DNA of 64,000 bases from Nemertoderma westbladi (taxonomy: Eukaryota; Animalia; Xenacoelomorpha): positions 124,001 through 188,000 of the forward strand of contig JAUCBJ010007484.1 of the NCBI GenBank assembly GCA_032718475.1, written 5' to 3'. How positions within the stretch are numbered: the stretch's first letter is position 1; each line of letters starts with the position of its first letter. The notes under the pieces are model-generated. The model saw nothing but the letters and a program-made list of their open reading frames with translations. It did not search any database and was not told the origin of the DNA. Positions 15,549 to 37,847 of the stretch are shown piece after piece. The position numbers and the translations under genes were made by a program.

Positions 15549-16099
15549 TGTAGTCTTTAATAAATCGTACTACTTTATTCTGAGCTACTTGTAATTTACA
15601 TTTAAGCTGTTTGGTTAAGCCTTCATACCAAGAAGAGCACGCATAGTCCATGTGACACTGTATTAAAGAAGCGCAAAGTAACTTGCGGGAGTCGGTGTTT
15701 AAACTATTTTTATTTCTGTATAGAAACCTAAGCCTACTGTTTATTTTCGAGAAAATATTTTTCACTATGCTTTCTCCTGATAAGCCGTTATCCAATGTGG
15801 CGCCTAAATATTTAAATTCCTTTTTATTTTCAATCTTATGTCCATTACTAGTGACTTCAAACTTAGTTACCTTCTTTAACTTTCTTTTGAAACCAAACAA
15901 AATACTTTCAGTCTTACCGTAGTGAATGGATAGCTTATTATCAACCAACCACTCATTACAGGATTCTAGAACTGCACTTAACTTTTGGGAAATATTGATA
16001 GGATCTTTATGAGAGAAAATAAGAGCACTGTCGTCGGCATATAAAATGAGTTTAAAATCGGGATCTATACTACTTATCATATCATTTACATAGCATACA
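15549..16099 (-). pseudogene. CR1/L2-group LINE RT, catalytic part
   Basis: CYVNDM...LYADDSAL...WLVDNKLSIHYGKTESILFG...FKYLGATLD...HMDYACSSW (ORF 15397-16080). Confidence 0.92.
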
Positions 16100-16249
16100 G
16101 GTCTAATATAGGTCTATATATATAGGTCTAAGCGATCATTTTATAGTTTTTTGCACAAGAAAGACACAAAAATCTTTTTTCGGGGATCATAAAACAGTAA
16201 CAGTTAGGTCTATGAAAAATTACAGCAAGGAACGCTTTTTAAGCGCTCC

Positions 16250-16388: not shown

Positions 16389-17134
16389 TGTTGCCGTTAT
16401 TCCTGACACCAAGGGGGAAAACGCCGATGCTCTGGAGGCGGAATTTTTAGACCACTTTATTCCGGCCAGTCACCAGATATTGGGAGTGGAGAAGTATGTT
16501 ATCTGAGATGCAAGATTGCGGGTAGAGAAAAAGTTTCATTGGTTGGATATAATCTTTAATGTAACTTGAACTCTGATTGAACCTTGATTGAGAATAATTT
16601 GGGCTTCCCCACACCAATATACCAAATATTCACAATAATACACAATATAAATTCCTAAAGTAAATTATTTAATTACCCACTGTTCACTTAACTTTCAGAT
16701 TTTGACCTAACTAATGTTCCCCATTTTGTCTCGGTCCTAGTCCCGGTACTGTAGTGTCAGTGTCAGTCGATCCTTTGCTTGTCCGTCCCACCATTCCCGA
16801 ACCCTGACGGGATCGGTCATCAGGAAAGCATTTCTACTAGTGGGTTACCAACTACCGAAGTAGAAGAAGGTTATCTAGGCCTCTAGTAACTATCAGGCAA
16901 CCCTGACAGCCGAGAGTATTGCTTGATTTTACCCCCCACCCATGGCCCTTAAATATCTGAGATGGTTCCCGCGCCCCGTAAGTCGCCACGAGTTTTGCCC
17001 ATAAATCGCCTCCAGTCTATCAAATGTGCCCAAATTTTGTGTTCCCGCACCCACCTCTGATATTGGCACATTCATAAAATATAAATCCAAAAAATATGTA
17101 ACTCGCGTTATGATAAATTGAAATACCGCGAACA
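16389..17134 (-). mobile_element. 3' LTR of outer BEL/Pao element E1 (746 bp)
   Basis: Minus strand TGTTCGCGG...GGCAACA, preceded by polypurine tract TGGGGGGGAC (17135-17144). A homologous LTR start lies at 51523. Confidence 0.8.
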
Positions 17135-17313
17135 GTCCCCCCCAAATGACTTTCGTGAGGTCTATTGGTAGATCGAGTTTGCGTAAGGTCATTTCCCCAT
17201 ATAAAAACCCAATTTTTATTATTGCATAGTCTACGATTAATTTGTCCTAGAGTCAGTTTACGTACATATAAAAATAAATGTTCGAATAAATGTCTATACA
17301 ATGTCCTGGTCTT

Positions 17314-18885
17314 CTATCTCCTGCTTTGATATGCTTTCCTTTTCTTCGCCCGTCGACTTTCATCTATCGCCAGTGCTGGTACGGGGGCATCACTTGCCGA
17401 TGTGAGCATCGCCGCTGCCTGCCTCCTGGCAGCCCTTCCTCGGGGAGGTATCGAAATGAGATCTGTTCTCCTCTCCAACTCGGTGGTTCGAGCCGCCTGG
17501 AACCATTCTCCATCTCCAAACGCTCCCGTATACGAGTATAGATGTATAATCACTTCAAAGGGACCGAATAGATTGGCACTAAGCAATAAATCCACAAAGT
17601 GGAAAGGCAAGGTCTTTACCGTATGGAGGCGTTCGGGAAACGAGAAATATCCGCACGCCATCTCCTGTGCAACGTTTTGAGCGCTCAATCGGGCTCTGGT
17701 CTTTATGTGGACATTGGCGTACGTCTCGAACATAACCATGTTCCCGGTAGCTGTAACATCCTTGGTAGGACATTTAATGTTGCACCGAGGGCTCGCTGTA
17801 TGCCCACGGAAGCCGCACATTGTACAGACGTTATAAAGTGTCTGGCAAACCGCTACGTCGTGGCCCGGGGTGGCGCAATACGGACAATATACTATCCCGA
17901 GGATTTGGAAACACGGTTCGGTAACTCATGGTTTCTTACTGCGAGGACACTGCTCCGAACCGCAGCTACTGCAAACATCTAGTTGCATTTCCCGACTGAA
18001 GAATATCGGGATCTGTACGCCGGCGTAATATTCGAATTGTCTATCTTTTTGGGGATAATTGTCATAACCGGAAGCCCGCGGAATGCCGCGATGGCGCGGA
18101 GTTGGGCCTCGCTTCGGTATCCCTCCTTATGGTCCACTGGACGCATCTCAGGTGCCCGTTTCTGACGGTGAATCCACTCCGTCTGTTCCGCGTACCATTG
18201 GGTGAGTCTCATCGGGTCCTGTGGAATGTTGGGAGCCGTCGCAATAGCCGGTCGGCGAAGGGGTTCCGGAATATTCACCGAGGGAATCCCGAGGAGGTCT
18301 CTAGGGGTTGGTGGTATACTAGGGCCCTTCGTAACTTGGATAGCCAATCGCGTCCGCTGGGTACTGGTACTTGGGGTTTCCGTGGACCAATCCTCTCCTC
18401 CAGGAAACGGGTAAGGAGATAACCTCCTGCATGTATGATCGAAGTCACTGAGCGCGAGTGTAGTAACTAGTTCTCTCGCCGGACTACCGGAGCCAAGCGG
18501 AGTAGTTACACCAGAGTCCGTCGTAGGCTCAGTCGCGGCAATTCGCTTAGCGGCTGATCCGTAGGTAACTTCCAGTTCGTGTTGACGTTTCGGTGTGGGT
18601 AACAGAACACCTTTGTGTTTCTATAACTCCTCCCCTTCCGACGATACTATAGGTTCCTCTGCGCCAAGGAGATTGTTAATCGTTGGGATATCGAATGGTC
18701 CATGCAGATCCCAGGATTCGATAATGTCGAGCGTCTTGGTATCTCCCAGTGGGATATTCTGTACCGCCTTGAACGCGCGGTCGATCACCTTGTTCCATTC
18801 GTAGTCTATGAAGGCATTGGGGACCGCGCTAATAAGCTTATCGAGGGTTTTACAGATAAACTTGGCGACCGTGTACGACTCCATC
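17314..18885 (-). pseudogene. E1 accessory ORF, C-terminal half (triple zinc-knuckle region); degraded
   Basis: Manual translation CSSCGSEQC...CPYCATPGHDVAVCQTLYNVCTMCGFRGH...FETYANVHIKTRARL...CGYF aligns with the E2 ORF (CDYCGRQTH...CLYCREPSHRMGACPRLHNRCPKCHFRGH...FEEWADVGAMTRQRM...WGFF). Confidence 0.8.
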
Positions 18886-19440
18886 TGTGACGGGATCCAG
18901 GAAGGATCCCGATTTATCCGGTTGTTTAATTCACTCGTCCCCGCCGTGTGTATGAAAGGTAAAAAAGGGAATCCGTGTCGTTCGTTGTATATAATAACTG
19001 ATATAGATATAGGGTATATAGATATAGGTGTACGGATAATGTTGTCGTATACAGAAGGCGGGATACGGTAATTAAAGTCCCGGTCGGTCCTTCCCTAGCT
19101 AAACTAACTAACCTAAACTAGCACCAATATTACACTGAGATAACTGAACTGATATGATTACTGCCAAGTGGCTATATTGCACGGTTGGCCTTGTTACTCT
19201 ACCTAATCGATGCCTTTCCCCCCTCTGATTGGTTGATACCCTTGTTGGCGCCCTTTGGAGTGTTTCCGTTCACTCCACCTGTTCTCTCTGGGTTAGGGGT
19301 TTGGCCCCTGACCCTCATTGTGTGTTTCCTTCCCATTTTGTTGGGGTGGCACGAGTTGGTTGATTACCCAATCTCGTGGCTACCAATATTGCTTATCGGC
19401 TTAACTTTATGGGGTGTTAGCGGGATTGAATAAGCTAACA
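18886..19440 (-). repeat. E2 3' LTR
   Basis: Direct repeat of 32376-32926, adjacent to the PPT. Confidence 0.97.
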
Positions 19441-20338
19441 CTCCCCCCCATGCTATCTTCCCGGTGAGAAGATAGCATCCACCTTAAGTGCACTACAATC
19501 CCGCTGGATCCCGATCTAGTATCGGGTGTGGGGTGGAATTCTTTTCTCTCGGAGCCGGCTTTCCAGGCCGCTCCCTATGGGTATGATAACGCTACCCTGT
19601 ATGCCTGGCGTCTCATGTTGGGCCGATCGTGCTCACCTCTCACGTGACTTTTGTTTCCCCAACACTTTTGCCCTATCTCTTCTCCACTCTCACCCTAACT
19701 CTCTCATACCCTCGGACCTCCTCGTCCCTCACTCAGCCTCTTATTCTCCCCCCCCACACACTAGAATTGCGTCCGCACTCTCTCCGCACTTCGCACTATT
19801 GCTCCGTTCCTCAACCCCACTTCGATTGCCTCATCCCTTCTGACGAATCTCCCCCCCCCCCCTCTTGTGCCGTCGCACTCAAGAAGTGTGAAATTGTCTG
19901 GTGTCTCGTCCATAGTGCCATAGTCAGTTATCCCCCCAGTCCCAGTAGCTAATTGAGAAAGGTTGTATGACTATAGTACTTACTCCGAATGTATATTTGT
20001 AGATTACTAATTGCTACGTACGTACATACAAATTGCACTTATATGATTATTTGCATTAATTAGATTTGTACTTAATAGTTCGTACGTCCCACGCGGCGCC
20101 TTCCAGGCGTACCACGTCCAAGTCCCAGTTTCTCTCCCTCGGCCCCCGGAACCTATCTGTTCCTCTGGGAATAGTTCCCCCTGGCGTCCTCTTCCCTGGG
20201 TCGTTTCTTGGTTACCACCGCTCCTCTGGGATCCGCTTTCTGCTTTCGGACCTTCGCCGCCACCTCCTTGCTGATTCCGGTTGTTGGCTCCTTGGGCGCT
20301 GGTGTTATTAGTGCCCGATATCGCTTCGCCGGTGGCCC

Positions 20339-22708
20339 CTAAGAGTGGCCCTGTTGTCTCCCTCTGGTGGCGTCCCATAGGATCATCTTCATTGCTTGCG
20401 GTACGTGCTCCGCCAAGAAATCCCTAAACTCCCCTCGGTTCTGTGGCATCCACCTGTCCAAATATCTTTGTGTGTTCATTACTCCGGCATACGACGCCGC
20501 CATCGCTACCTCTTGATAGGTAAACGGTAGCCTCCGCTTTATGATTTCCATGTGAGCCTCCTGATTGATAAGGAAGAAACCCCACTTGAACTCCTGGGCC
20601 TTCATGCGCTGGCGCGTCATGGCCCCGACGTCGGCCCACTCCTCGAATCTCCTGAACTTCTCTTCGTCGTCCATCCAGTCGCACTGGCGTCCGTAGTGTC
20701 CCCGAAAGTGGCACTTTGGACATCGGTTATGCAGTCGTGGACACGCCCCCATCCTGTGGCTCGGTTCTCGGCAGTAGAGACAAGAGGTTCCCTTTTGGAA
20801 CCGGTACAGGCAGCTCCTTTCCTGGTGGGTCTGTCTCCCACAGTAGTCGCAGCCGAGTACCAATGTCTCCCGCCACACGTCGTCTCTCGTCCCAAGCGAT
20901 CTCCGCGGTCTGTGGAGTCGCTGGTAGGCGAATTTCTCCATGTTGGTGTCCCTGTCTACGTCGATCTCTCCGCCCCTCTCGGGCATTGTCTCCCCGAATA
21001 CTATCCTTGGTGCCGTCCCCGGTTGCTCGCCCAACCTGATAGTGCTCCCCGCGAAATCCATCGCCGGCTCCTCGTGCACCCAGGTCCGCTTGCCGGATCT
21101 GTTCCAGAAGGCCCTCGCCCCACTGGCCGTCACCACCCTTCCGCCAACCCAGTCCGTGTCCGAGTGGCCTATCCTCTCGATGGGCGGCATCTCTCCGAAC
21201 TCGTTGCCGTCCTCCTCCTCCTCTGGCAGTGGCTCCAACCCCGGTATCCCGATGGATCCACTATGTCCCTTCCCGCCTTGGCTCTCGCCCGTAGCTCTCC
21301 ATCCCTCTAGCTCCCTTAACTTCCTTGGCGGTTGGTTGCCTTCGGCGCCCGCTGGTATGGGCATCGCTTGCAACCCTGACGTCGACTGTTTCAGCGATCC
21401 CACCATCCATCCCAGTTCTCGCCCTAGAGACTCCCCCGAAATCCCTGACGAAGTCCAATGAAATTCGTCTAAGCCTGCCTGTTCCTCGAAGCCGTAACTC
21501 TGTGTCCTGGCCTCCTCTTCCCTCTCCTCTGCTTCTATCCTCTCCCGTCTAGCGACTTCTTCCAGTCGCTTTGCTTCTCGTCTATCCGTTTCTAGCTGCT
21601 CCCATCTCTGATACGGCGTATCTGTCTCCCCGTCTACCAGATGCCGGCTATTGTAGTACACCGACTCGCCCTTCAGCCCCGGGTGGTCTACCAGACCGTC
21701 GAAGGCCATTTTAAAGGCTCTCCTGTAGCTTAGGGGTGATCCCGATAACAGAAATGCCCCTGGTTCCCTCTCGATGACCACGGTCATAAATAAGTTAAGC
21801 AAACTTATCATCATCCAATCTTCCTGCAGGATATATCGCTTCTGATATACCTTTATCGCTCCTCTGCGGAATTGATATACCTCTTGCTTTCCCGGTCTCA
21901 CTCCCCACTTTAGCGAGTTCACTAGTTCTGCTCGGTATTCTTCCCTGAACTTCCCCCAATCCATCGGTTTGTGGCACACGAGCCCCAATAATTGGCCCAT
22001 TGCCACCGCCCCGCATTGGCCTGTGTTTTCGACTACCCCCAACCCATCCGGTGCCGTCATAGCCATAAAGACCTTCTGCATATCCAGGAGGTTGGTGGCG
22101 TTCGGACCGATGATCCTCTCCGCATCCTCGCGAATCGCCGATCCTACTTTCGTCGTCGACTTCTCTCTTACCAAGACTTGTACCGCTTTCGGTAACCGGT
22201 TTAATTTCGGCCCGTCCTTCTTCCCATACATTCCTAGATCAAATAAGAAGATGTCCCCATTTGGCGCGGCCAAATGTAGGAGTATGGTCCTGGCCGACCC
22301 CGCCAATCCTCGTCTCGAACCCGCCTCATCTTCCACGGTTCCCTCGTCGTCTAGGATCATATATCCTCCTCTGTTGACGGACTCTATGAATCTCTTCCAG
22401 TCCTTCCTCGGTGATTCCCTCGGGTACTTCGGAATCCCGAACTTCGCCTCGTCCCCTTCCACCACGTAGTGGAAGTGTTGGAAGATCGCGTTGTCCAGCG
22501 ACGGCGTCCCGTAGGTCCCGACCAGCCGCTGTTCGTGCATCTCCCGGAAGTGATCCTGCAGCGCTCGTGCCGCGTGACCCCTTTCCAACCTCTCGTAGTA
22601 TCCTCTCGTCTTCTCTTCCGGATGCCTCTCGGTGAAATCCACCAGCATCTCCTTTCCTCCTGACTCCGCCTTTCTCTTTCTGATCAATTTGCTCGCCATT
22701 CCGAACAC
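20339..22708 (-). CDS. E2 accessory protein: putative DEDDy 3'-5' exonuclease plus three zinc knuckles (first ATG 22699)
   Basis: Open 789-aa frame. ExoI-like MILDDEG, LLHLA..GDIFLFDL, LPKAVQVLV..STTKVGSAIRED (ExoII-like), LLDMQ, QKRYILQED (ExoIII-like). C-terminal CDYC..H..C, CLYC..H..C, CPKC..H..C. Confidence 0.75.
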   Translation of the reverse strand: MFGMASKLIRKRKAESGGKEMLVDFTERHPEEKTRGYYERLERGHAARALQDHFREMHEQRLVGTYGTPSLDNAIFQHFHYVVEGDEAKFGIPKYPRESPRKDWKRFIESVNRGGYMILDDEGTVEDEAGSRRGLAGSARTILLHLAAPNGDIFLFDLGMYGKKDGPKLNRLPKAVQVLVREKSTTKVGSAIREDAERIIGPNATNLLDMQKVFMAMTAPDGLGVVENTGQCGAVAMGQLLGLVCHKPMDWGKFREEYRAELVNSLKWGVRPGKQEVYQFRRGAIKVYQKRYILQEDWMMISLLNLFMTVVIEREPGAFLLSGSPLSYRRAFKMAFDGLVDHPGLKGESVYYNSRHLVDGETDTPYQRWEQLETDRREAKRLEEVARRERIEAEEREEEARTQSYGFEEQAGLDEFHWTSSGISGESLGRELGWMVGSLKQSTSGLQAMPIPAGAEGNQPPRKLRELEGWRATGESQGGKGHSGSIGIPGLEPLPEEEEDGNEFGEMPPIERIGHSDTDWVGGRVVTASGARAFWNRSGKRTWVHEEPAMDFAGSTIRLGEQPGTAPRIVFGETMPERGGEIDVDRDTNMEKFAYQRLHRPRRSLGTRDDVWRETLVLGCDYCGRQTHQERSCLYRFQKGTSCLYCREPSHRMGACPRLHNRCPKCHFRGHYGRQCDWMDDEEKFRRFEEWADVGAMTRQRMKAQEFKWGFFLINQEAHMEIIKRRLPFTYQEVAMAASYAGVMNTQRYLDRWMPQNRGEFRDFLAEHVPQAMKMILWDATRGRQQGHS

Positions 22709-23184
22709 TCACTCGCTCACCTGCAAGGTGGTGCCTTACCAAGGCGCAATACAGATGAGTGATGTATCTAGGATGTTCTGTACGGTCCGATAATGGCCTA
22801 TTTCTTACTTAACTGCACCTTTTAACCTAAATTATTACTAATTAATTTTGAAGCTAGTAAATGAGCGTAATTTACAATTTCTGTCCGTTACTTTTATTAT
22901 GTTCTAGAATAACTTTCCTTGTGTTGCCATTATTTGTAACTTTCAGCCCTATTCTATTTATTTGTAATTTTAATTTTAATTCTACTGTCCTACTACTTAC
23001 TATTGCCTATGGATTGTTCTATTCTCTAATCCACATTCTGGCCTACTCTGTGGGCCTGTGCAGTACAGCAGTATGCGTCGTGTGGCCACACGATTTACCC
23101 AGCTGTACTCATATGCCCCCCTTTCGTTGCTAACTGCTAACTAATATCTATATCTTATATACCCTTTTACCTCTTACTCTCTCT

Positions 23185-23785
23185 CTCTAACTAACGGTAC
23201 TACGTACCCTCTAACTCTAGTTCTAACTAACTAACGGTACTACGTACCCTCTAACTCTTCTCTAACTAACGCTACTACGTACCCTCTAACTCTTTAACTA
23301 GCGGTACTACGTACCCTCTAACTCTCTAACTAGCGGTACTACGTACCCTCTAACTCTCTAACTAGCGGTACTACGTACCCTCTAACTCTCTAACTAGCGG
23401 TACTACGTACCCTCTAACTCTCTAACTAACGGTACTACGTACCCTCTAACTCTCTAACTAACGGTACTACGTACCCTCTAACTCTCTAACTAACGGTACT
23501 ACATACCCTCTAACTCTCTAACTAGCGGTACTACGTACCCTCTAACTCTCTAACTAGCGGTACTACGTACCCTCTAACTCTCTAACTAACGGTACTACGT
23601 ACCCTCTAACTCCTCTCTAACTAACGGTACTACGTACCCTCTAACTCTCTAACTAACGGTACTACGTACCCTCTAACTCCTCTCTAACTAACGGTACTAC
23701 GTACCTCCTAACTAACTAACTAACTCTAGGTACTACGTACCTTCTTACTGACTAACTTTTGCCTACTAACTGCGTACCTACTATG
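23185..23785. repeat. ~32-bp tandem array between integrase and accessory ORF in E2
   Basis: Unit CTAACTA(A/G)CGGTACTACGTACCCTCTAACTCT; period 32 at 23341/23373. Confidence 0.93.
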
Positions 23786-23906
23786 TACTATTATTTTATT
23801 TTTATTTTCTATTTTTATCTGTTTTTATGTGTGGGAAGGGCGTCTCGCCCTCAATCCCACCCCCCTCAGTCCAAAGCTTGGACGACTAAACTCATGACAA
23901 ACTCCA

Positions 23907-26900
23907 CTAAGGTGCCCCTTCTAGCAGACAGCATTTTCCCACAGCTCTCCTGTAGGTTTTTCTGTCCTTCGCACCTATCTTACCACCTATCCGCACTTCT
24001 ACCGATCGGACTCTTCCGTCCTCGTCGGAGTAAGTGCCTACAACTCTCGCCAACCGCCACTGGTTGTTGATGATAGTATCATCCGTAACGATTACGAGAT
24101 CTCCCTCTCTTAACTCCCTATTTGGCTTCCTCCACTTACTCCTTTTATGGAGTGTGGGTAGGTATTCCTCGACCCAACTCCTCCAATACTCTGCGCTTAT
24201 TGCTTTAGCGACTTTCCAACTTTGGCGGAAGTGTATGTCATCTGGGTCTACACCCCGCATATCGATGGTCACTGGCCTTTCCATCAGGAAATGGCTAGGC
24301 GTCAGCACGTCTAATGACTCAGGGTCATCATTCTCCGGGTATAGCGGTCTGCTATTAATGATCCCCTCGCACTTCGCAAGCACTGTCCGTAAGACGCCCT
24401 CAGTGACCATGTGGGTGTTCATTAGCTTCATCATTAGACGCTTAGAACTGCCCACCAGTCTCTCGACGCATCCTAGTGTATGTGGTGCATACGGCGTCCT
24501 TCTCTCCCACTTTACTTGTCGTCGCCTCATGGCTGCCCTGACTTCTTCTCCTTCCAAGATGTCCAAGGCCTCTGTCATCTCATTCTCTGCGCCCACAAAG
24601 TTGGTGCCGTTGTCGCTGTATATCACTGCGATCGTCCCACCTTTGCGGTCCCTAAATCTTTCTAAGGCATTAATGAATGCTGATGCGGTTGCATCTTGGG
24701 CTAGTTCTATCCCTATCGCCCGCGTGTTGTTGCATACGAAGATGATACCGTAGCGTTTCTCCGTGTGCCGCATCACCTTTATCTTTATCGGCCCGAACAT
24801 GTCCACACCGCAATGCGTAAATGGCGGGTCGTGCTGTCTTACTCTACTCGCTGGTAGTGGCGCCATCTCTTGTATGGCTCGCTCCTTCTTCGCTCGCCGG
24901 CAGGTCTGGCACTGCCCCACCACCGCTTTTACCTTCTTCCTCAACTGTTTGACCCAAAAGGTCCTCCTTATCTCGGTGAGGGTTCAGTTGGTGCCCCCGT
25001 GCAATATCGATTTATGGGAGTCCCAGATAATCTGGTGAACTATTGGCGATCCTGTTGGAATGATGATGGGTTTCGGTGGTACGATTATGCTATTGTTGTA
25101 TCCCACCCTAGAGTTCATTACTAGAATCCCGTCGTCATTAAGTTGTGGCGACAGCGCGATCAGCTCGCTGTCCCGTCGGAGGTGTTGTTGGTTACCGACG
25201 CGTTCTACCTCGTCGCTATAGTTCTTCCGTTGTTCATAGCGGATGATTGCCTTAGCCGCTCCTTCCAGATCTATGGTTGTCCTGATCTTCTTGTCCTTGC
25301 CAACTCCCGCGAGGAAATTCCCGAAGGCTCTCCAGTACGCCACTAGTTTCTTGGTCTTATACCAACTAGAATTGTAGCTGAGGAGTTTATCCGTCGGGTT
25401 ATCGCACAGTTCTCGTTTTGGTTGCACATCCCTAATCTCCCTCACCATCTGGGAGTATATCTCTTCTCCCTCTGAATCTCCCTCTTCTCCTTCTGACACT
25501 GCTTTTGAGCCCGGGTCCACCTTTTTCATTGGCGGCCAGGCCTCCTTATCGCTCAGAAATTGTGGCCCATGTTGCCACAATACTTCCTTCTTCAAGAAAG
25601 TGTGGCGTACCACGCCCCTCGACAATAAGTCCGCTGGGTTCTCGTCCGTTGGGCAGTAGTGCCACCTTTCCAGTTCTGTGCTCGCCGTTATTTCGTCCAC
25701 TCTATTTGCGACGAATATTGGGTATCTCATCCTTTCGTTATGTAGCCAACCAAGTACTACCATGGAGTCCGTCCAGTAGTGTGTCTCCACTATGTTGGGA
25801 ATAGTATCCACTAGGTAGGCTGTGGCTCTAACTCATAGTTTCGCAGCTGTCAATTCTAATTTGGGAACTGATGCTGAATCTGGCGGCGTTGACTTTGCTT
25901 TGCTAAAGGCTAGTCTGGGCTTATGAGCCCCCTCTCGTTGTACTAAGTAGAGTGCCGCTCCGTACGCCTCCAACGACGCATCGGAGAACATGTGTAGGTC
26001 CAGGTTCGTCATGTTCCCATCCGGGAAATACACTCGTGGCATGTTGTATGTTCCCATCTTCTCCAAGTCTCCTGTCCACTTACTCCATTGTTTCTTGATT
26101 TCCTCTGGTACCTCTACGTCCCACTCATCCTTCAATTTGTATACTCTCTTGAGTATCTGTTTCCCCGTAACTAATAATGGGGATGCTAGGCCTAGGGGAT
26201 CGTATGTCCTTGCTATATACGATACATAGCCCCTCTTCGTGTGGATGTCTGCACCCGCCTTGCTCAGCTGATACTTCAGTTCGTCTGTCTCTCTGTTCCA
26301 CACGATTCCCAATGCCTTCTGTTGAGATTCTGTTCTCTTATTCGCCATGTCCTGCCCTTTGGCTGTCGTGGGATTATCCATGGTCGATTTTGGTCTCTTG
26401 TCCTCTATCGCCTTGATAAATTCTTCCGAACTGGATTGGAATTTGGTCAGGTTAAAGCCGGATCCTTTCAGGATGTCGCGAACCTCGCGCCCCGTGTCCA
26501 GTATCTCCTTAACCGTATTTCCAGACTCCATTCCGTCGTCTACGTAGAAGCCACGTCAACTCATATCGACGGCCCTAGTGCTGTATCTATCTTCCTTCCC
26601 CTTCACTGTGTCTCTGACTGCCATAGTCGTCGTAAATGAAGACGACTTGGCTCCCATGTTCTGTACTACCATCTTATATGCCGGTATTATCGACGGTTCT
26701 TCCTCGCCGTTATACCATAAGAAGCGCTGACTGTCGCTATCTTCCTCCGTTACACGGACTTGGTTGAACATGCCTTCTATGTCACACGTGAAGGCGTGTT
26801 TCCCATTCCTAAATCTAAGTAGCACCTCTATGCCCGAATTGTATATGTTTGGGCCTTCTAACAGGTAGTCGTTTAAGCATTTTCCGTCGGTCTTTGCCGA

Positions 26901-28478
26901 TGCGTCGACTACCATCCGTAGTTTACCTTTCTTTGGGTCTAAAGCCACGTGGAGTGGCAGGTAATATGTCCTGTCCGTGTTCGGCTTGTCGACTGGTAAC
27001 TCCACGGCCCATCCTTTCTCGACGTACTTCTTAATCGTTCTGTGGATGTACTCATTCTTCTCGGGGCTCCGTTTTAGTGTTTGTTTCAGCTTGCGGAGTC
27101 TCGTGAGTACCATCCCTCTATTATCGGGCAGCGGTATCTTCGGTAGTTTCCATACCATTCCTATAGTATACCGCCCCTCATTGCATGTCATCGATTCCTC
27201 CACGCTTTGTAAAGCCTGCTTGTCTTCTACCGAGGTCCCGACCCCGGTCTCCTTTAGTCCCTCGAAATCTGGCCTGAGCAGTCTTTTGAGCTGCTCCTCT
27301 GCTCCCTCATCACCCATTTCCTGCATTGTTCCCGCGAACATGCATCCTGATGTCTCCGACATCCTAAATGGTATCTTACTCTTGATTGGACCACTCAGCG
27401 TCCACCCGAATGGTGTTAATATCGCCACCGGGTCACACTGCTTGTCTTCGCCGAAGACCGTTTGCATTCTTTCGTGGGCCGTTGGGCAGTCCATTCCTAC
27501 TATAATGGATACCTTCCTAACGTCCACATGTGGGATTGAGAAGTCAATGTCGTCCAGGAACTTATATTGCTCGACCTCGATGTTGGTTGGCCGCCTGGCA
27601 TTGATATTAATTGACTCTATCACTTGGATGGGGTCGATGGTTGCCCCATAGTCGCATCCCGGTGCCACTGCTGCAATTGCGCACCGTCCTGTTCTCATCT
27701 CCAGGATCTCATCTTTGATAGAGATGGTTGTTACCGCCATTCTGCTTGGCCTCATTCTCAATCCTATCTCTTCGGCCACCCATTCCTCGACTAATGTGAA
27801 GGCAGCTCCACTATCAACCAGCATTAGTGTTGTTACTGATCGATTGCCTTCCCCAATCACTCGCACGGGTACTACTCCAAGTAACACCGTTCCTCTCTTC
27901 TTCGCCCCTACTGTGCTCGTCGCCATCGTCTGGCCTCTCCTCTGACCAAATTTTACCGGCTTCTCCTTGCACTCCCTTGCTCTATGTCCACTCATTACAC
28001 ATCGCGAGCAGATTTTGTTGCTCAATGCATAATCTATCTGATCTTGCCTAGGTAGCGCCTGCCAGTACCTGCAGTTCATGGTTTGATGAAGCGCATTTGC
28101 GTGTAGCTGGCATTTGCTCTTTGGGTCGTAGCCCTCTTTATACAGTGCATTACGTATCGCAGCTGCGTTTGTACCAAAGTCCCTACTATTCTTATTGTTT
28201 GGATTCGGCCTACTGGACGTACTGGGGTTATATTTATTCGTGTTGTTATTGTTCCCCTGTCCGTTCCATGGTGTTGTCTTATCTTCGGCTAGCTGTGGAC
28301 TTGCAGTCCCCTGCGTCGCTGCATATGGCAATGATTGCCTGAGCCTCGGTAATGCGTTTGATGTATTGTGCTCTGGTTTCGGTCTATGGTAATCCGTCTT
28401 CGGTCCCTTTCCCAGGCTATCTTCGCTATAGACTGGGTCAGTTATTAGTTCAGCCTCGTAGTTTAAGAAGCTTGACAT
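23907..28478 (-). pseudogene. pol: E2 gag C-terminus plus pol (protease, RT, RNase H, integrase) with in-frame stops
   Basis: Zinc knuckle CSRCVMSGHRAREC; PR LVDSGA; RT YYLPLH, LRMVVDAS, DIEGMF, FYVDD; RH FSDASLEAYG, PKLEL, WTDS, NPADLLSRG; INT GVDMFGP, SDNGTNF, ERLV. Four track ORFs share one frame, separated by TGA at 26556, 25833 and 24984. Confidence 0.95.
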
Positions 28479-31400
28479 TTCTTCTAAACCCGGTTCCGCA
28501 CCCTTCTTGTCTCGAGTGGAGAAAGCGATCTTCCTCCACTTGTTGCGCAGCTAGTTTGGTAGTGCCTGTGCTATCGTGGTGATGTTATTGGACGCGTTGA
28601 GCTCGTATGGCGCGTCTAGCGTCTTCAGCACGATTAGCGCCTTTTCGACCTTGTTAGCGAACGTCTTAATGCTAACGGGATTATCCTGTAGGCCACCCGA
28701 TGTTATGCCTCTCAGTGTCTGTCTGATGATCTTGGCCGGGTGCCCGTATTCCCTATCCAGTGCCCGCCATGCTGTCGTGAAGCCGCCCTCTATTCCTTGA
28801 TATTGCCTCACGATGTCGTATGCTGGGCCTCCTGTGTATACTTGCAGATACTTTAGGCACTCCGCCTGCGTCAAGTTTTTTGTAATTATTTCGTTACTAT
28901 ACATGCGCCGAAACTGTAGATATTCTTCCGGCCTACTCCCATCGAATTTGAATGGTTCCACGGGTGGTAACTCGATCCTCGTTTTCAATGCATCGATCAA
29001 CGTGGCCATCCCCATCGCCTGCACTTCCAATGGGTTCAATGGATGCTGTATAGTTTCTCCTGTCTGGTGCGGTTCGTCCGTCCTATTTCTTGATCTTCTT
29101 TGACTTGGGTATGTCATCGGGGGTAGCGGCCCCCTCCATATCTCTGTGTCACACGACCTATTTTCATCCAAGGGTCTCGTTGTTCTCGCTCCTATCGGGG
29201 TATATTGTTGATATTGTGATGGGGGAATGTCACCCTGTCCCCCCCCCCCACCGGTATGTTTGGTACTGGGGTTGATGTTAATATGTTGGGGCCCATACAC
29301 CTATCCGCAATAATTCCCCCCTCCCCTGGGTATATGTTATGTCCCTGCATGCTGTAGTCATACTGCTGTACTGGTACCGGTATAGGCCTATCAACTTCTG
29401 GCCTACTCGTCGGTATGTATTCCGCGACTTCCGGGTTTAATCCCATTGTCCGCGCTATCCTATCCCCTACATTGCCTCTCTCAGTATGGCCTATGGTATG
29501 TGCAGTAAGGCCTACAGTATGTCATACAGTCTGCATGTGTTGCTCGGGATCGAAGTTTATTCTTCTCGAATAATCCTCCCCGCGGCTACCGTATTCTCGA
29601 TCGGTAGGTACATTCCGTCGGAAAGTTTCTCTTCGACCTCCCTCTCTACTGTTCTCATCTTCGTACCGGTACATCGTGTACCCTTCCATCGGCGCGTAAT
29701 GCACCTCGCCAGGTCGCATCTCTCCGGGGCGACGGCAATCTCCCGGAGTCCGACCCCACTGACTCTCCGTTCTCATCTCGACTACCGACGGCTCGCTATC
29801 TGTCCTCACTCTTCTATCGTTCGCGGCGATACTTTTACTACTGTCTTCTCTTCTTCTCCTTTCAGTGTAGTATTCCCGCTCGTGAGATCTCTCGTCGACC
29901 TCCCGGTTAAACCCCACTGTTCTTCTTCCCTCTTCTGATCGGGCTCGACGCTTCGTCCGCCCTCTCACAACGTCAACCTGTCTCTCTCTGCTCGGTCGCA
30001 CGCCGCTGGGGATACTCACAATCCCCCTATTACTCTCCGTCGCCGGGTGTTGCGGTTTACCTATTTCGGCCCGCGCATTATCCGCTGACGGCTGTGGAGC
30101 TCTCCCTGCCCCCCCCCCTTTCGCCGCTAACTCGCTGTTGTGGGGCCCCTGTAGCCCCCCCCCCCCCCCCCCACTCGCCATATCTAACTTCGCCATCCCT
30201 CACCCCGCTACTATATCCCTCTCTAGTCGACACATCTACCCTACCGCGGTCGGGTCTATTCACCCCCGCCTCTCCCTCTGCTATTGCGTGGCCTACCAGG
30301 CCCTCTACTCCCTGCCTACCAACTACGTGGCCTTCCAGGCCCCCACCGGGTCTATCCAACCCAGCCGCTCCCTGCCTACCAACTACGTGGCCTACCAGGC
30401 CCTCTCTGGGTTGGCTCAATCCCGCCACCTCCGACCTACCAATTGTACGGCCTACCAGGCCCCCGTCTGCCCAGCCATACACGCCCGACGTGTTCACGTT
30501 AATAGCACCCACATTGGAAACGGAATTAATTTGTTCGTTTGAAACAAAATCATTTGAATTATTTTGTAAATTCGGACTTGGATCATTATTTAAATTATTT
30601 GAATTATTTTGCACGTTCAAATTGAAATTATTATTTGTACTTAAATTTAAATTACTGCTACTGGGTAAAGCATTATTTGCTGCAATAAAGGTTTGGTTAG
30701 AGTTATCCCATACGGTACTATTAATATTAACGACGTCTACTATAGCATTATTATTACCCCCCCCGCCCGTACGGTCACACCAGTCTTGGGTCTGTCGTGC
30801 GGTCCCTGTAAGTGGGGTATTAATAAATGTATCCACGGCCCCTGGCTCCTCGAAAATACTCGAGCTAGCCCCACTCTCAGACGCCCCTACTCGCGCCAGT
30901 TCCCGCTCGCGCGTATGTACAGCTTTGTACCCTGTAAGCTCACCCTGACGTTTCTCTAGTTCCTTTTGCTCACACTCCTTCCTTGCCATTCTCTCCTTAC
31001 ACTCCCGTGCGTTCCGTTCGGCCAATTCCAACTCTCTTCTAGCCCCCTCCCTTCGTCTCGCCTCATGCTCTCAGTATTCGTTTTCCTTTCTCTCCTCGCG
31101 CTCTCTGCACTCGTTTTCCTCTTTCGCCTCACGTTCCCTACTTTCCGCCTCACGCTCCCTACGTTCCGCCTCACGCTCTCCGCGCTCATTTTTCTCTCTC
31201 GCCTCGCGCTCTTCTTGTTCCTTCCTCCCTACTTCCTCACACTCCCTAAGGCTTCTCGCGGCCCTTTCGGCCCTCTCCCCGGTTTCCTTAATCAACGCCA
31301 TTTCCCTCTCTAGCAGCACTCTCCCCTCCTCTAACCGTCTACCTACTTCCCTTTGACCTTGCTCTATTAGATTGAGACGGTACGCGGCATTTATATCTCT

Positions 31401-32312
31401 CACCCGTCTTTCTTTCACAGAGGATGTAGCAGACTTATCGGTTGTAACGGATTCCCTCCGCCTCCCCGTCCTACTAACCTTCCCCCGCCTCCCGGAACTT
31501 CCTCCGACCGACGAGGCTGAATCCTCGGGGTTAACCTCGGATTCGTCCTCCTCAGGTCTCTCCCAACCCACTAATTTTACTCCCCGGGCATCGACTAAGT
31601 ACGGCCCTACGTACACTACGCTAGGTTCTATACCCCCATACCGCCACAAGTCATACAGTTCCTCGGCAACCCCTCTTGCTCTCTCCTCGGCCAGTCCTCT
31701 TTGCCCGAAGCGCATTAGATAATAAAAGTGTCTATTCGACTCACCTAGTCTTCTCTTTAGTTTTACCTTGTCTATTGTCGCCCCTCCTCTGGCCTCCTCT
31801 AATAGTCTCCGGGTCGCATTGTAGGCCCGTCGAAGTCAATCAGAAACCCCGACGTCCTCGTCGCCGACCTCTCGTCCGTCTCTCCGGGTCCGGCGTCGTA
31901 CCGTCGGCCCCACCGTCGCCGTTTCGGTGGGCCGCTCGTCGCTCTCAGCCCGTGGCTGGCCGGCGACATCGGTACCGACATCTCCTCCATCTCTTTGGGT
32001 CCGGCGTCGTACCGTCGGCCCCACCATCGCCGTTTCGGTGGGCCGCTCGTCGCCCTCGGCCTGTGGCTGGCCGGCGACATCGGTACGTCGACCCACGTCT
32101 CGTGTCGACTCGTCTCCATCTCCCTCCGTCTCGCTCTCTCCTTCTCTTGGCTCGACCTCGGGTTCCAGGCGGCCCCCCTCATCCTGGACTGCCGGATGAC
32201 CCGTTACCGATGGGTCCGGCGTTGTGGGCCTGTACCGCCTGGTTGCGGCCTCGCGGATCGTTGATTCTTCGTCCGGGGTCCGCGTCGGCGTTGTCTCTCT
32301 CAACTGGCTCAT
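28479..32312 (-). pseudogene. gag: E2 gag with long N-terminal extension (coiled coil, Asn-rich tract, DUF1759-like domain)
   Basis: Track ORFs from 31836-32312 down to 28551-29300; FDGSRPEEYLQFRRMY...KYLQVYTGGPA...LDREYG; homologous to E3 gag. Confidence 0.85.
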
Positions 32313-32375
32313 CTCGCTTGGTGGTTGGTGGCTGGTGGTTTAGCTGGCTAGGGGAACAGTTCCGATTTTAATTAC

Positions 32376-32926
32376 TGTGACGGGATCCAGGAAGGATCCC
32401 GATTTATCCGGTTGTTTAATTCACTCGTCCCCGCCGTGTGTATGAAAGGTAAAAAAGGGAATCCGTGTCGTTCGTTGTATATAATAACTGATATAGATAT
32501 AGGGTATATAGATATAGGTGTACGGATAATGTTGTCGTATACAGAAGGCGGGATACGGTAATTAAAGTCCCGGTCCTTCCCTAGCTAAACTAACTAACCT
32601 AAACTAGCACCAATATTACACTGAGATAACTGAACTGATATGATTACTGCCAAGTGGCTATATTGCACGGTTGGCCTTGTTACTCTACCTAATCGATGCC
32701 TTTCCCCCCTCTGATTGGTTGATACCCTTGTTGGCGCCCTTTGGAGTGTTTCCGTTCACTCCACCTGTTCTCTCTGGGTTAGGGGTTTGGCCCCTGACCC
32801 TCATTGTGTGTTTCCTTCCCATTTTGTTGGGGTGGCACGAGTTGGTTGATTACCCAATCTCGTGGCTCCCAATATTGCTTATCGGCTTAACTTTATGGGG
32901 TGTTAGCGGGATTGAATAAGCTAACA
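32376..32926 (-). repeat. E2 5' LTR
   Basis: Direct repeat of 18886-19440. Confidence 0.97.
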
Positions 32927-34050
32927 CCATCGTTACATAGATGTAGTCCCGTCGATCCGGATTATCCCAGCATTGGTGGATCGTCCACTTCCTATCTACA
33001 TCCTTCCAACGGTTCTCCCGCTCGTGATGTATCGCTAAATCCGGATGCGCGCCGTAGATTTTATTGTAGTCCGGGAACTTCTGTGGTTTAAAATCTAAAC
33101 CGCCATTTAGCACCGCTAGGTAGCCGATACCGGATTTGGTCCATCTCACCTCTCTAAACCCACCCTTAAAGGCAGTGACCCGTAACCAGGCCAGCAGGGT
33201 TTGGGTGTCAATGAAGTGGCTGATCACGCTAATATCCTCTCTATGGTTACTTTTGAATGGAGCGTTGATGTAATCGTTTCAGAGGTCGGCCTTTATATCT
33301 GACCCGATTTTGATAATATCGAAGTCAATCCAATCAATCTGGCTGTCCGTATCTCTTGTTGGGGTGTCGGGAAGATTCGGCACACTAACACCAACCCGTC
33401 CAGGGTTCCGAGGATGACGATTAGCGACCGACTGTACTCTTTTGTCCCGTATTTCTCTTTATAGTCGTCTCGGTTTTGGATGACTGTCATTCGTTCCTCT
33501 CGCAGCGTCGCCGTACATTCCACCAGGTTTCCCCAGTGTGCGAGATATGTACTCTTATCGTCGATGAAACTCTGACATCGCGCCATTGTAACCGCCTTCG
33601 GAGTTGGCGTCGCGTTGCCCTCGTTGTCGTATATCAAGCACCGGGATTTGTAAACGCTTCGCCGGAACGTATCCCAAAATGACAACTCTCCTCCTCCAGT
33701 TGCCTCAGCGTTCCGAGTCCTTTTCAGGCTCGTACTAGCATTGGACAACCAGAGCGCCTGCAGGTTACGGGTATCCGGGACCTCCCTCCGGGAGAAACGA
33801 ATGACTCACACATTCTTGCTCAACAGGTCGTTCCATTTCACATCAAAACTAGGAGATCCAGGCTGTGGATAGTCCAATAAATCAATTGTAGTACGTAATT
33901 CGCCAAGAATCTGGCGATTCGGGTCCAATTTGTAAATTACGTCGTTACAAATTAATTCAGTTAATTATAAATCCAGAAAGTCTGATTCTATAGCGACTGC
34001 AGAATAGTTATTTTTAATGTAGTTAATATTATTGATATATAGGCATCTAT
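32927..34050 (-). pseudogene. E1 accessory ORF, N-terminal exonuclease-like half; degraded
   Basis: GSPSFD...FRRSVYKSRCLIYDNEG...IVILGTLDGLVLV...KSG...FIDTQ...GIGYLAVLNGGLDFKP matches E2 GTPSLD...FIESVNRGGYMILDDEG...LLHLAAPNGDIFL...KVG...LLDMQ...GAVAMGQLLGLVCHKP. It joins 18885 across the E2 TSD. Confidence 0.75.
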
Positions 34051-34539
34051 CATCTTATTGGTACTACATTCAGTATTACAGTTACTATAGCTATACATTA
34101 TTATCCAACCAGTTTTTTTGACTTTTTATGTCCGCTTCTTTTTTAAATTCTTTTTCTATTCTACATTTTATACCTTTTTTCTCTTTTTTATTTCTATAGT
34201 TTATTCATTTCACATTTCATTATTTCTTTCACATTTCATCATTTATTCCACCATTTCATTGGGGTTATAGCCCCCCGGCTATCATCATTGGTTATAAGCG
34301 CAAGACACCAGGGATGCGCATCATCACATTTTCATCATCATAAAAGTACGCGTCATCATTCAGTTTATAGTTGAGTTATCTGTTTCTTTTCATCATTTCG
34401 TACTACATTCAATCATCTTATTGGGAATTTTTCGTTGTGGAAGGGGTGTTACGCGGCAGTCTGGGATCTACAGCTGGACTCGTTACACCGCCTATGCCCA
34501 AACTGCTCACGTAATGGACAATGAATATAACGCTGGAAG

Positions 34540-34713
34540 TGAAGTCACGTGGAATGCACCAGGGACCCACCACAATAACACTCCCAGAAACATAAAGCTC
34601 AGCCGACGAAGTCAAGTGGAATGCACCAGGGACCCACCAGAAACGTGGCTGAGGGACATAAAGTCTCTATCGACGAAGTCATGTGGAATGCACCATGGAC
34701 CCACCAGAATAAC
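34540..34713. repeat. Three spaced direct repeats
   Basis: GAAGTCA(C/A/T)GTGGAATGCACCA(G/T)GGACCCACCA at ~34541, ~34609 and ~34675, with unrelated spacers. Confidence 0.8.
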
Positions 34714-34725
34714 GCAATAGAGGGG

Positions 34726-34820
34726 GTGTCCCTCGAAACAGGAAAAGGGCCCCCTGGACTGACAACAAAATCCAGAAGTGCCGAAATGACCTATATAAGG
34801 CGCAAAAAGAGTCCCGACTC
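34726..34820 (+). mobile_element. Short RTE LINE fragment
   Basis: Matches 53841-53935 (AAACAGGAAAAGGGCCCCCTGGACTGACAACAAAAT...GAGTCCCGACTC). Confidence 0.85.
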
Positions 34821-36015
34821 TGTTGTGTTGTTGCATACCAGCCATATTGTAAAATGATCAATTGTTACAAACTGATTACAGGATTCTATTAATACAAACT
34901 CAGGTCCTGACTGATAACTAAACAGCACAAACGTAACAGCACAAACGGTATATACCTAAAACAGTACACACCCCTGTACACCTACAACACACCAGTAACA
35001 TGAAGTATATAGGACGACTTAGATCCCTCTACAGTACAAACCATAACCCATCATCTCCCTTTAAAAATTTTTTTTTTATTAAAAAAAAATTGATGATATT
35101 AATAATTATTTCAAATAGAAAAACGGACAGGTTTTCTTGCTCTAACACTCCGCCGAAGAATTGATTTAGGAACTTTATTTTTTTGTAGTGGCCCCAAGGT
35201 TTGTGTTGCAATGTATGGAGTTATTATTTCAGAATTATCCTTCTGGGGACGCAATAATCGGCGATTACGCCGCAGGACTCGGCCGGATGGAAACTTGATA
35301 TGATAATCACGTTTCTCTCCACGATCTATCACTATTCCAACTCTCGACCATCGTTTGGATCTTGGATTCTGTACCAAGTCCTTTGTTCCAATATCCAACT
35401 CTGGAAGGGAATGTGCATTCGCATCATAACGTAATTTAGCTGATTTGGATGCCCGCCAAGCCCTTTCATCAGCTTCTTTCGCATCAATCTGCCATTCTTT
35501 ATCGAAAGCCCAATAATGCAAAGGGACACAAGAACGGAGGGGGTGACCAAAAACCATCTGACTTGGAGATCGCCCATCTACGTAATTCTAATAATCCTTT
35601 AAGAAATGGTTCTGTATCAATCCTTCCATTGTCAGCCTTAGCTACTAATTGCTTAATAACTTTAACGGAAACTTCCGCATGTCCGTTGGATTGTGGGTAC
35701 TCGGGCAATGATGGTACCCACTCAACACCCCAACGGTCTAGAAAATCTCTAAATAATTTTGATGCATACTGAGGACCCCCATCAGTTCGAATCCGCACAG
35801 GAACACCTGTTCGAACAAAATATTCCTGGATTTTACAATAACTTGAGCTGCAGTTGGATCCTCATGCCAGCTGGTAACAAAAGGATACCCAAACAATCTA
35901 TCTACATACACCATATACATGGATCCTTCATAGTGGAATAAATCTGATGATACCGATTCAAATATTCGGGATGGAATCGGATCAGAAATTAAGGGCTCCT
36001 TTACATTACTAGGAA
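34821..36015 (-). mobile_element. Truncated Gypsy element: degraded integrase, PPT and 3' LTR (34821-35053)
   Basis: MVYVDRLFGYP, IRTDGGPQYAS, YPQSNGHAEVSVK, GRVLRRNRRLLR; PPT AAAGGGAGA then LTR TGATG...CAACA. Confidence 0.85.
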
Positions 36016-36377
36016 GTCAAAATTGGAATTTCTCACATGATTCGGTTATTCGTTTTATCTCGTTATCTATCCTGGAGCAACAAACCGAATACCGCCTATG
36101 CCCCAAACTGCACACGTAATGGAAAACACAGGACAAACATAATGGACACAATGAATTCCATTTCGAAACTTTCCCATTTCCGATAATACAAGGTAGTTGG
36201 TCCTGATGACCAAAATCCGGGTGAACAAAACATAAACTACCCTGCGTCAGTCGAAACATCTGCAGGGTGATGCTGGACTCCATATAACACATGAGGAAAC
36301 ACAAATACCATGCGTGGTTACAGTTGGTTTAAGGGGGGTCCATAATCATTGTCGGTAAGTCACATTTAAAGAGTTTT

Positions 36378-37847
36378 TCAACAGGATGGTAAGGGTTTAA
36401 ACGGTTTGTTATTGTCACCAATGTCCACAGCAGGATCCGGAGTAGGGAACTTATCACCTCTCGTGGAGTCACCACTGTAATTGCCTTCGAGAAGGCAAAG
36501 CCTCTGGATAGGGCGTTGGTAGTGGCCCTTTGCCGTTCGTATCATCACCGTTCTCGCAAGTCCATCCTTGCCAGGGGTTATCTCCACGACACGCGCCACA
36601 GGCCAGTGGACGCAGTCTTTACGGTCTTCCTTGACGAGTACCATGTCGCCAACTGCGACATTCCGGTACATATCATTCCATTTCCTCCTCGTTCAAAGAA
36701 TTATAAGGTACTCCTGGGACCAAATTATCCACCAATGCGCCACCAGCGCTTGGGCTTTCTTCCAGTTTGTGTGTTTCGCGATGTTGTTGGGATCCGGGAA
36801 CATGGCCTCTGGAAGTATGTTGGTCTTGGGTCTACCGAGGAGATGGTTGGGTGTTAGGGGTTCCAGATTGGTTGGGTCGTAATGGATGGGAACGATTGGC
36901 CGGTTGTTTAAGGTAGCCGTGATTTCGCAGAATGTGGTGCGCAATGTATCATGAGTGACCCGGGTATCCCCTAACATGATCCGCATGGATCGTTTAACTA
37001 AATCAATGAGTTTCTCAAATACCCCGCTCATATGGGGTGCTAAGGGTGTCTGGAAGTGCCATTGGATATGGTGTTCCTTCCAGATGTGTGATGCGGTTTC
37101 ATTAGTGAACCATCCTTCGATAGCCTCTCTGAGTTCCCTTTCTCCTCCCACAAAGTTCGTTCCATTGTCCGAGTACATGTGCCGGCATGAACCATTATTC
37201 GCTACGAACCGACGCAGGGCGTTGATGAATGCGTGCTGCATGAGGTTCACCACAAGGTCCAGGTAGATCGCCCTCGACTGTAGGCATGTAAAGATGGCTC
37301 CCCAACATTTAATGTTGGATCGTCGCTCTATAACTGTAAATGGTCCGAAGCAGTCTACGCCAGTTAAGTAGAACGTCGACGAGTCGGACTGGAGTCGCGT
37401 GGCTGGCAGATCGGCCATTCTTTGGGTGAGTGGTGGTGATAGATATCTCCTACAAGGAAAACACTGTTTCAATACTTTCCGAATTAGCGGCTGGATGTGG
37501 GTGATCCAGTATCGTTGACGGATATTGGCTATGATCCAGTTTTGGCCCGCGTGATGGTTTTCCTTGTGACATTGTTGAACTAACAGCTTAGCTAGTGTAG
37601 ACGTCCGTGGCAGAAGTGCCGGATACTTAATTTCATACTCAACTGGGGCGTTCACCATCCAGGTATTAAGGCGGATCAATCCGTCCTCTCCCATCATGGG
37701 TCTCAGCTGGTAGACCGGGCTATCAGGTTTCAAAGTCCTGCCTGCATTGAGCTGCACCCATTCGTTGGGGAAACTTTCTTTCTGGACATATCTTACAATA
37801 CATTTATCTGCGATAATGAGTTCTTGTACACTAAGCTGAACTATCGG
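36378..37847 (-). pseudogene. pol: BEL/Pao integrase (probably E1)
   Basis: CHKENHHAG..IRQRYWI..CFPC..MADLPATR..TGVDCFGP..SDNGTNFVG..APHMSGVFE..LNNRP..LTPNHLL..WPVARVV..GKDGLAR..RPIQRLCLLE. Confidence 0.93.

Follow-up and report, generated by a model that had tools for sequence, protein, structure and literature searches.

A probable homologue of the exonuclease-like, zinc-knuckle third gene of a BEL/Pao retrotransposon in the older BEL/Pao element that it interrupts in Nemertoderma westbladi

Extra genes besides env are rare and poorly understood in long terminal repeat (LTR) retrotransposons. A 64,000-nucleotide stretch of the Nemertoderma westbladi genome (contig JAUCBJ010007484.1 of assembly GCA_032718475.1, positions 124,001 to 188,000 of the forward strand; called here the window and numbered from its first letter) contains an LTR element of the BEL/Pao type, E2, which carries such a gene behind pol (open reading frame (ORF) 3) and which is inserted in an older, decayed element, E1. 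The question raised by this locus is whether the gene interrupted by E2 is a homologue of the ORF3 of E2 itself, as claimed by a first-pass annotation made from the sequence, and what such a gene would do for a retrotransposon. It is very probable that E1 and E2 are diverged BEL/Pao elements with a homologous third gene coding for a DEDDy-type domain, a linker, CCHC knuckles and a tail, and that E2 landed in the ExoIII stretch of the E1 gene; trimming of the 3′ ends of element nucleic acid is the predicted function.

E2 occupies positions 18886-32926 on the minus strand (14,041 bp). It is bounded by LTRs (18886-19441 and 32375-32926, (−)) that read TGTTAG...GTCACA and are 99.1% identical across 557 columns in the window self-comparison, and by a 5 bp target duplication (GATGG on the minus strand, CCATC on the plus strand) found at 18881-18885 and 32927-32931. 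Its Pfam matches are Peptidase_A17 (2.4e-36), DUF5641 (2.4e-24) and DUF1759 (7.4e-11), as well as Integrase_H2C2 and rve. The Pao-type pol, the DUF1759 gag, the TG..CA termini of the LTRs and the short target duplication characterize E2 as a BEL/Pao element. ORF3 (20339-22708, (−)) is open and codes for a protein of 789 amino acids (P0001). It is preceded by a tandem array of a 32-bp unit between pol and ORF3 (23177-23757, (−)), identified by repeat finding and self-comparison, and followed by ATGGGGGGGA and then by the TGTT start of the 3′ LTR of E2.

As had been proposed, excision of E2 at CCATC rejoins the E1 gene; the reading frame is unchanged across the target duplication. The uninterrupted arrangement is found in DNA of the same organism, where contigs from two runs (three contigs in run X1 and one in run X2) connect position 18880 directly with 32927, leaving out 14046 bases, 5 bases being ambiguous. 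There are thus E1 copies that lack E2. Summed contig depths per bin in X1, which do not equal copy numbers, range from 5,635 to 127,124 in the E2 interior and from 190 to 8,606 in the E1 gene. They suggest that both families are multi-copy, E2 much more so. Differences between the E2 of the window and the other copies represented in the run contigs are mainly transitions.

The rejoined E1 gene is read on the minus strand in several pieces. Its N-terminal pieces (33964-33806 and 33805-33293) share one frame with a single stop between them (33806-33808) and contain the ExoI motif IYDNEG (positions 18-45 of the N-terminal family profile, see below). A second frame holds the piece 33458-33282, which contains the ExoII motif KIGSDIKADL (profile positions 88-104) and ends at the one stop of this stretch, and the piece 33278-32927, with FIDTQ and DFKP, which reaches the ExoIII tyrosine (profile positions 113-193). 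The same frame continues past E2, with one stop, through 18885-18621, which directly follows the E2 break and codes for the end of the exonuclease-like domain, and through the linker piece 18620-17979. A third frame (17925-17314) codes for knuckles 2 and 3 and for the conserved helical tail. The decayed first knuckle (CxxCG...) lies in a shifted-frame piece at 17929-18126, (−), whose profile match is weak (E 2.8).

In P0001 a DEDDy-like domain (about residues 100-345) is followed by a disordered linker (408-615), by the CCHC knuckles (620-676) and by a helical tail that extends to about residue 780. The exonuclease label of the first-pass annotation is supported by profile and structure comparisons. 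The profile of A1, a MAFFT alignment of P0001 and 32 long relatives (n = 33), matched EXD2 (6k17; 1.9e-12), Egalitarian (1.8e-4) and WRN exonuclease (8.7e-4) in the PDB, while its knuckles matched Lin28 (7.6e-7) and retroviral nucleocapsid (2.7e-4). An AlphaFold model made with A1 has a predicted local distance difference test score (pLDDT) mostly of 80-93 across residues 100-345; it is confident also across 620-780 and disordered at 408-615 (from the P0001 sequence alone the pLDDT is 31.5). The PDB matches listed by Foldseek for this model are all DEDDy/DnaQ-like 3′-5′ exonuclease-fold domains or proteins containing one: Egalitarian (the best), Nibbler, Trypanosoma brucei RNase D, Rrp6, EXD1/2, RNase D and A-family polymerases. 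At least 25 of them have E ≤ 1e-3, with a target template modelling score (TM-score) of up to 0.57. Named matches in the Foldseek viral library are 3′-5′ exonucleases, a ribonuclease H-like protein, A-family polymerases and one uncharacterized protein; several others are nameless. Two of the 37 long relatives scanned match PF01612 (6.2e-5 and 2.5e-4), the best of them (P0025) with 23.3 bits, just below the gathering cut-off of 23.6; in the Atlas, PF01612 clusters hold 24 of the 30 matches. These sequence and model comparisons support the prediction that the N-terminal domain has a DEDDy-type 3′-5′ exonuclease fold. The knuckles, which score under the cut-offs of the Pfam knuckle models in P0001, consist of three C-x2-C-x4-H-x4-C units. 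The 33 sequences are invariant in the ligand columns with two exceptions: in the third unit C676 is conserved in at least 90% of them, and in the first unit H628 is listed neither as invariant nor as conserved to that degree.

The homology of the two genes is clearest at the C-terminal end, where the alignment initially drawn by eye was confirmed. E2 ORF3 aligns with the product of 17314-17925 by BLASTP at 7e-13 (31% identity over 111 columns) and by window-wide tblastn at 2e-10, and the C-terminal profile of the family matches this E1 piece at 8.3e-21. The likeness extends outside the cysteines: the cysteine-free tail after the last knuckle is significant by itself (1.3e-6), with a Smith-Waterman score of 64 compared to 26.1 ± 4.5 for shuffled sequences, none of which scored as high in 1000. 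For the N-terminal domain, a family profile iterated on the relatives was searched against the 1848 six-frame ORFs of the window. The best non-self match is 32853-33278 (E = 2e-6), followed by 33296-33805 (0.071; ExoI, IYDNEG) and 33282-33458 (0.29; ExoII, KIGSDIKADL for KVGSAIREDAE in E2), the next ORF of the window having an E of 1.2. The three pieces, all from the E1 gene, are adjacent, lie on one strand and are colinear with the profile. A read-through of the rejoined gene, with X at the breaks, aligns across E2 to profile positions 113-243 (26.1 bits, 4.3e-7). Since this alignment continues over the break, E2 lies within the ExoIII stretch, in agreement with the insertion point first suggested.

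Most of the motif pairs noted by eye fall in these aligned stretches (IYDNEG/ILDDEG, FIDTQ/LLDMQ, DFKP/CHKP, the knuckles and FETYA/FEEWA); the pair GSPSFD/GTPSLD, which the profile does not cover, is not statistically supported. Conservation is at the protein level, as had been stated: no similarity of the two genes was detected in DNA (best blastn E 0.038, 19 nt) and the two linkers do not align. Taken together, the sequence comparisons indicate that E1 has a gene homologous to the accessory gene of E2 over both domains.

Is the interrupted gene part of a BEL/Pao element? E1 and E2 have a common order in one orientation: pol, a spacer with tandem repeats, the gene, a polypurine tract and an LTR. 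In E1, the integrase and DUF5641 part of pol is found at 36378-37846, (−) (DUF5641 4e-21, Integrase_H2C2 1.3e-8), and its integrase is 35.7% identical to that of E2 (4.6e-68). A remnant of the RNase H region (51041-51478, (−)) is 42% identical to the corresponding piece of E2 pol (6.6e-13) and lies beyond another insertion, E3 (see below). In the spacer between pol and ORF3 (33965-36377, (−)), tandem repeats (about 34443-34722) lie next to a foreign insert of 1.4 kb (34723-36140). This insert is missing in other E1 copies, as contigs join 34715/34722 to 36141 (X1, n = 2) and 34499 to 36136 (X2, n = 1). Without it, the spacer is about 1 kb long and includes a tandem array, like that of E2. Downstream of the gene, the polypurine-like tract TTTGGGGGGGAC (17135-17148, (−)) directly precedes a repeat that starts with TGTT at 17134. 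The latter is the start of the 3′ LTR of E1 (16825-17134, (−)); its end is fuzzy and its summed contig depth is above that of the E1 interior. A G7A tract directly followed by a TGTT LTR start is thus common to E1 and E2, while the window self-comparison revealed no DNA similarity between their LTRs, as expected from the first-pass annotation, which had placed the gene upstream of a polypurine tract and an LTR unrelated to that of E2. E1 is probably a BEL/Pao element, judging from Integrase_H2C2, DUF5641, the RNase H remnant and a single LTR in the expected place; reverse transcriptase, protease and gag are missing.

Other features of E1 were noted in the course of this inspection. The foreign insert is itself composite, with a piece of a very abundant long interspersed nuclear element (34730-34820, 93% identical to 53846-53935) and a fragment of a non-BEL integrase (35499-35861; rve 1.2e-5). 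The copy number of the arrays at 23177-23757 (E2) and 34443-34722 (E1) varies among genomic copies, as seen from contig joints, which in the E1 array include some that go back within the repeats. An inverted copy of the E1-type LTR (51524-51835, (+), 79% identical to 16825-17134, (−)) adjoins the truncated E1 pol; it could be due to an inversion, to the solo LTR of a relative or to another event.

Several observations weigh against the reading given above. The first of them concern the N-terminal domain, whose pairwise likeness between E1 and E2 is not significant. The best Smith-Waterman path, which corresponds to the ExoI stretch, scores 39 compared to 33.7 ± 4.4 for shuffles, 40 of 300 being as high, and the profile that rescues the relationship was iterated on proteins chosen through their C-terminal match. 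The N-terminal alignment proposed from the two sequences thus fails as a pairwise comparison and holds in the family profile. If zinc knuckles were all that the genes share, the N-terminal likeness being due to chance, such pairwise scores would be expected; this is nevertheless extremely improbable in view of the significance of the cysteine-free tail and of the profile result, which singles out three adjacent and colinear pieces of one strand among all ORFs of the window.

The second point is the attachment of the gene to E1. The link between pol and ORF3 spans a 2.4-kb gap that includes foreign sequence, and the 5′ half of E1 is gone. These facts, together with the inverted orientation of the second E1-type LTR copy, would suit a decayed gene (17314-18885 and 32927-33964) that belongs to the host or to another element and merely lies beside the E1 pol remnant. 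We find this very unlikely, as the gene has the strand and order found in E2 and in a third carrier (P0093, see below), the stretch is multi-copy, the 1.4-kb insert is absent from contigs of other copies, and the gene is followed by the G7A tract and the TGTT-starting repeat. Furthermore, a contig of 345 bases, recovered from two runs, connects ORF3 (33808) with pol (36754), a weak indication that gene and pol are linked in another, deleted E1 copy.

The third group of observations touches the activity of the protein. The N-terminal domain of P0001 has no Pfam match at E ≤ 10. At the predicted catalytic positions E2 ORF3 has D120, E122, D195 and Y292, with E296 in place of the aspartate, so that the ExoIII acidic position is E and not D. 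The D-E-D-Y-(D/E) set is complete in 16 of the 33 aligned members, E2 among them, and incomplete in the other 17; many, perhaps all, members of the family may therefore be binding proteins rather than enzymes. E1 retains the D-x-E of ExoI and the ExoII aspartate, its ExoIII motif being split by E2. A catalytically dead RNA-binding adaptor comparable to Egalitarian, EXD1 and Maelstrom, used for packaging or localisation, would agree with these losses, with the absence of the ExoI motif from P0093, with Egalitarian as the best Foldseek match and with EXD1 among the matches listed. This alternative deserves attention, but we consider it unlikely: all five catalytic positions are kept in E2 and in 15 other members, and the strongest sequence match is EXD2. 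EXD2 is an active exonuclease. Finally, the E2 copy of the window is not intact. Its gag-pol (23907-31835, (−)) shifts frame at about 29300-30080 and is interrupted by in-frame stops at 28553, 26558, 25835 and 24986. The stops identify this copy as a non-working element, although its ORF3 is open.

The distribution of the gene beyond the window bears on its origin. A phmmer search with P0001 against 1.84 billion representatives yielded 80 proteins at E ≤ 1e-3, five of them at ≤ 1e-10 (best 1.2e-15). In all but P0063, which matches in the linker, the best matching stretch is the knuckle-and-tail region (about 577-757). The N-terminal domain, of about 270 residues, is also present in 34 of the 80 and lies upstream of the knuckle region in all 33 whose domain order is readable. 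Not all 80 proteins are family members, as the Coffea protein P0026 matches the knuckles alone. None of the 30 family proteins looked up has an informative name and none of the 37 long relatives scanned reaches a Pfam cut-off. Two relatives have unusual architectures. P0006 (positions 124-2022 of contig L001) carries the knuckle-plus-tail module twice in tandem (residues 299-413 and 493-614); its contig, of 3685 bp, is too short to contain pol. P0063 (382 amino acids) has five tandem repeats that match the E2 ORF3 linker at about residues 502-547.

A third carrier was identified in P0093, a protein of 1928 amino acids from an unrelated assembly, found in the 90% cluster of relative P0018. Its pol domains are Peptidase_A17 (1.8e-42), Integrase_H2C2 and DUF5641, and behind DUF5641 come the N-terminal domain (residues 1154-1362, 8.1e-33), which lacks the ExoI motif, and the knuckle-tail region (1733-1852, 2.5e-30). 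In integrase, P0093 has about 30% identity with E1 as well as with E2. Since an independent BEL/Pao pol carries both domains, the gene is not a one-off capture, as previously anticipated. Three BEL/Pao pols, with integrases 30-36% identical among themselves, are each followed by this module, and the E1 C-terminal piece is about equally far from E2 (29-31% identity) and from environmental members (30-34%). These values, and the absence of DNA similarity between E1 and E2, point to an old family, again in line with the first-pass annotation. The conserved motifs suggest that the ORF3 module may have been under selection.

The same identities can be read in another way, the module having been swapped or captured several times among retroelements, with E1 and E2 as separate acquisitions, instead of being inherited within the one BEL/Pao sublineage that the first-pass annotation took it to define. 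The C-terminal part of ORF3 is 45% identical between E2 and P0093 (83 columns) and 31% between E2 and E1, while for the integrase the order is reversed (36% for E2-E1 and 30% for E2-P0093), and environmental members are no more distant from the E1 C-terminal piece than E2 is. For the DEDDy ORFs of rotifers, two or more acquisitions have been inferred, as well as sharing between LTR and Athena elements (PMC5408684). However, the incongruent identities come from short stretches, and E1 and E2 agree in gene order, in having a tandem array between pol and ORF3, in the G7A tract and in LTRs that begin with TGTT. Separate acquisition appears the less likely explanation, if a serious one, and the module may have been inherited within a single BEL/Pao sublineage.

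What could such a protein do? T. brucei RNase D acts in guide RNA trimming, and knuckles of the nucleocapsid and Lin28 types bind single-stranded nucleic acid. T. brucei RNase D (PDB 7c42-7c4c) resembles P0001 in having CCHC zinc knuckles behind a DEDDy exonuclease domain, and is matched by the A1 profile (chain 1.5e-7, exonuclease part 0.42, knuckles 5.4e-4; Foldseek 1e-4). It differs in being a cellular enzyme that has neither the long disordered linker nor the helical tail. The similarity is remote and does not imply shared ancestry of the fusion. The tandem C-x2-C-x4-H-x4-C units are like those of retroviral nucleocapsid and Lin28, but they are three in number and lie in an accessory protein instead of Gag. 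The fold, as well as the order of the motifs ExoI, ExoII and ExoIII with tyrosine, is that of EXD2, WRN exonuclease, Nibbler, Egalitarian and Rrp6. Unlike cellular proteins of the PF01612 type, P0001 has no Pfam-level match, belongs to a family group of its own and is borne by a mobile element.

Because its build resembles T. brucei RNase D and its knuckles are of the nucleocapsid/Lin28 kind, we tentatively propose that the ORF3 protein would be held by its knuckles on element RNA or single-stranded complementary DNA (cDNA), where the exonuclease-like domain would trim 3′ ends. We see this as a real possibility that falls short of being probable; the catalytic activity, the substrate and the benefit to the element are what we infer. 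A role in counter-defence, by destroying or trimming host Piwi-interacting or small interfering RNAs as a mobile-element relative of Nibbler, or as a fidelity factor acting on cDNA 3′ ends, appears quite improbable. If true, cDNA proofreading would allow BEL/Pao elements to reach unusual lengths, 14 kb in the case of E2, much like ExoN in nidoviruses.

Retroelement-borne exonuclease-like ORFs have precedents, cited here from the parts of each paper that treat them. RNase D-like DEDDy ORF3s are carried by Juno and Vesta, LTR elements of bdelloid rotifers, and by Athena/Terminon elements (Rodriguez, Kenefick and Arkhipova 2017, PMC5408684), with DEED variants and, in Vesta2 and Vesta5, a Cys-His-Cys motif; there their function is called unknown and 3′-end processing is proposed. 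The Terminon case is restated in a 2019 review (PMC6431247), and a DnaQ-like exonuclease is counted among LTR-element accessory domains in a 2019 opinion article (PMC6338049). The Juno/Vesta ORF3s resemble the gene described here as an extra ORF behind the pol of an LTR retrotransposon, with an RNase D-like DEDDy domain in which some catalytic residues are altered (PMC5408684). Compared by description, they differ in that the present carriers are BEL/Pao elements (Peptidase_A17, DUF5641) and that here one protein combines the domain with three canonical CCHC knuckles and a helical tail that is conserved. In the full-text literature searched, outside which lie subscription journals and Repbase Reports, neither an exonuclease gene of BEL/Pao elements nor its fusion with three CCHC knuckles is reported. 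As DEDDy ORF3s have been known from rotifer LTR elements since 2017, what is new is the element clade and the fused triple-knuckle architecture.

The remainder of the window is rich in further repeats. E3, a second element of the E2 family (37847-50948, (+)), is inserted in E1 pol with the target duplication ATCGG (37842-37846 and 50949-53). E1 has therefore been struck twice by one family. The two E3 LTRs share 99.2% identity, and about 80% with those of E2; the element has the opposite orientation to E2 and lacks most of pol and the entire ORF3. Nested in E3 is E4 (40413-45679), an LTR element with 260-bp LTRs that are 99.6% identical and an ORF (44204-45391, (−)) matching DUF7041 (3.6e-7). 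Non-LTR-type reverse transcriptase ORFs are found at 53816-55618, (+) (RVT_1 1.1e-16) and 15397-16113, (−) (RVT_1 2.1e-7). A 29-bp satellite extends from 57338 to about 62300, with at least 171 overlapping 300-nt register matches. Two further tandem arrays, at 3581-5684 and 6225-8463, have steps of about 52 and 69 bp, and a 2.6-kb direct duplication (9858-12413 and 12983-15548) is 92.9% identical between its two copies.

The analysis of this locus defines a family of two-domain accessory proteins with at least 34 members in public data, and ties the family to a BEL/Pao pol in three independent instances. The observation of DEDDy ORF3s in rotifers is thereby carried over to another major clade of retroelements, and a nucleocapsid-like nucleic-acid-binding part is added. 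The open ORF3 copy of E2 provides a concrete protein for expression and assay. The rotifer and BEL/Pao cases together suggest that retroelements have repeatedly needed a 3′-5′ exonuclease or an exonuclease-like RNA binder.

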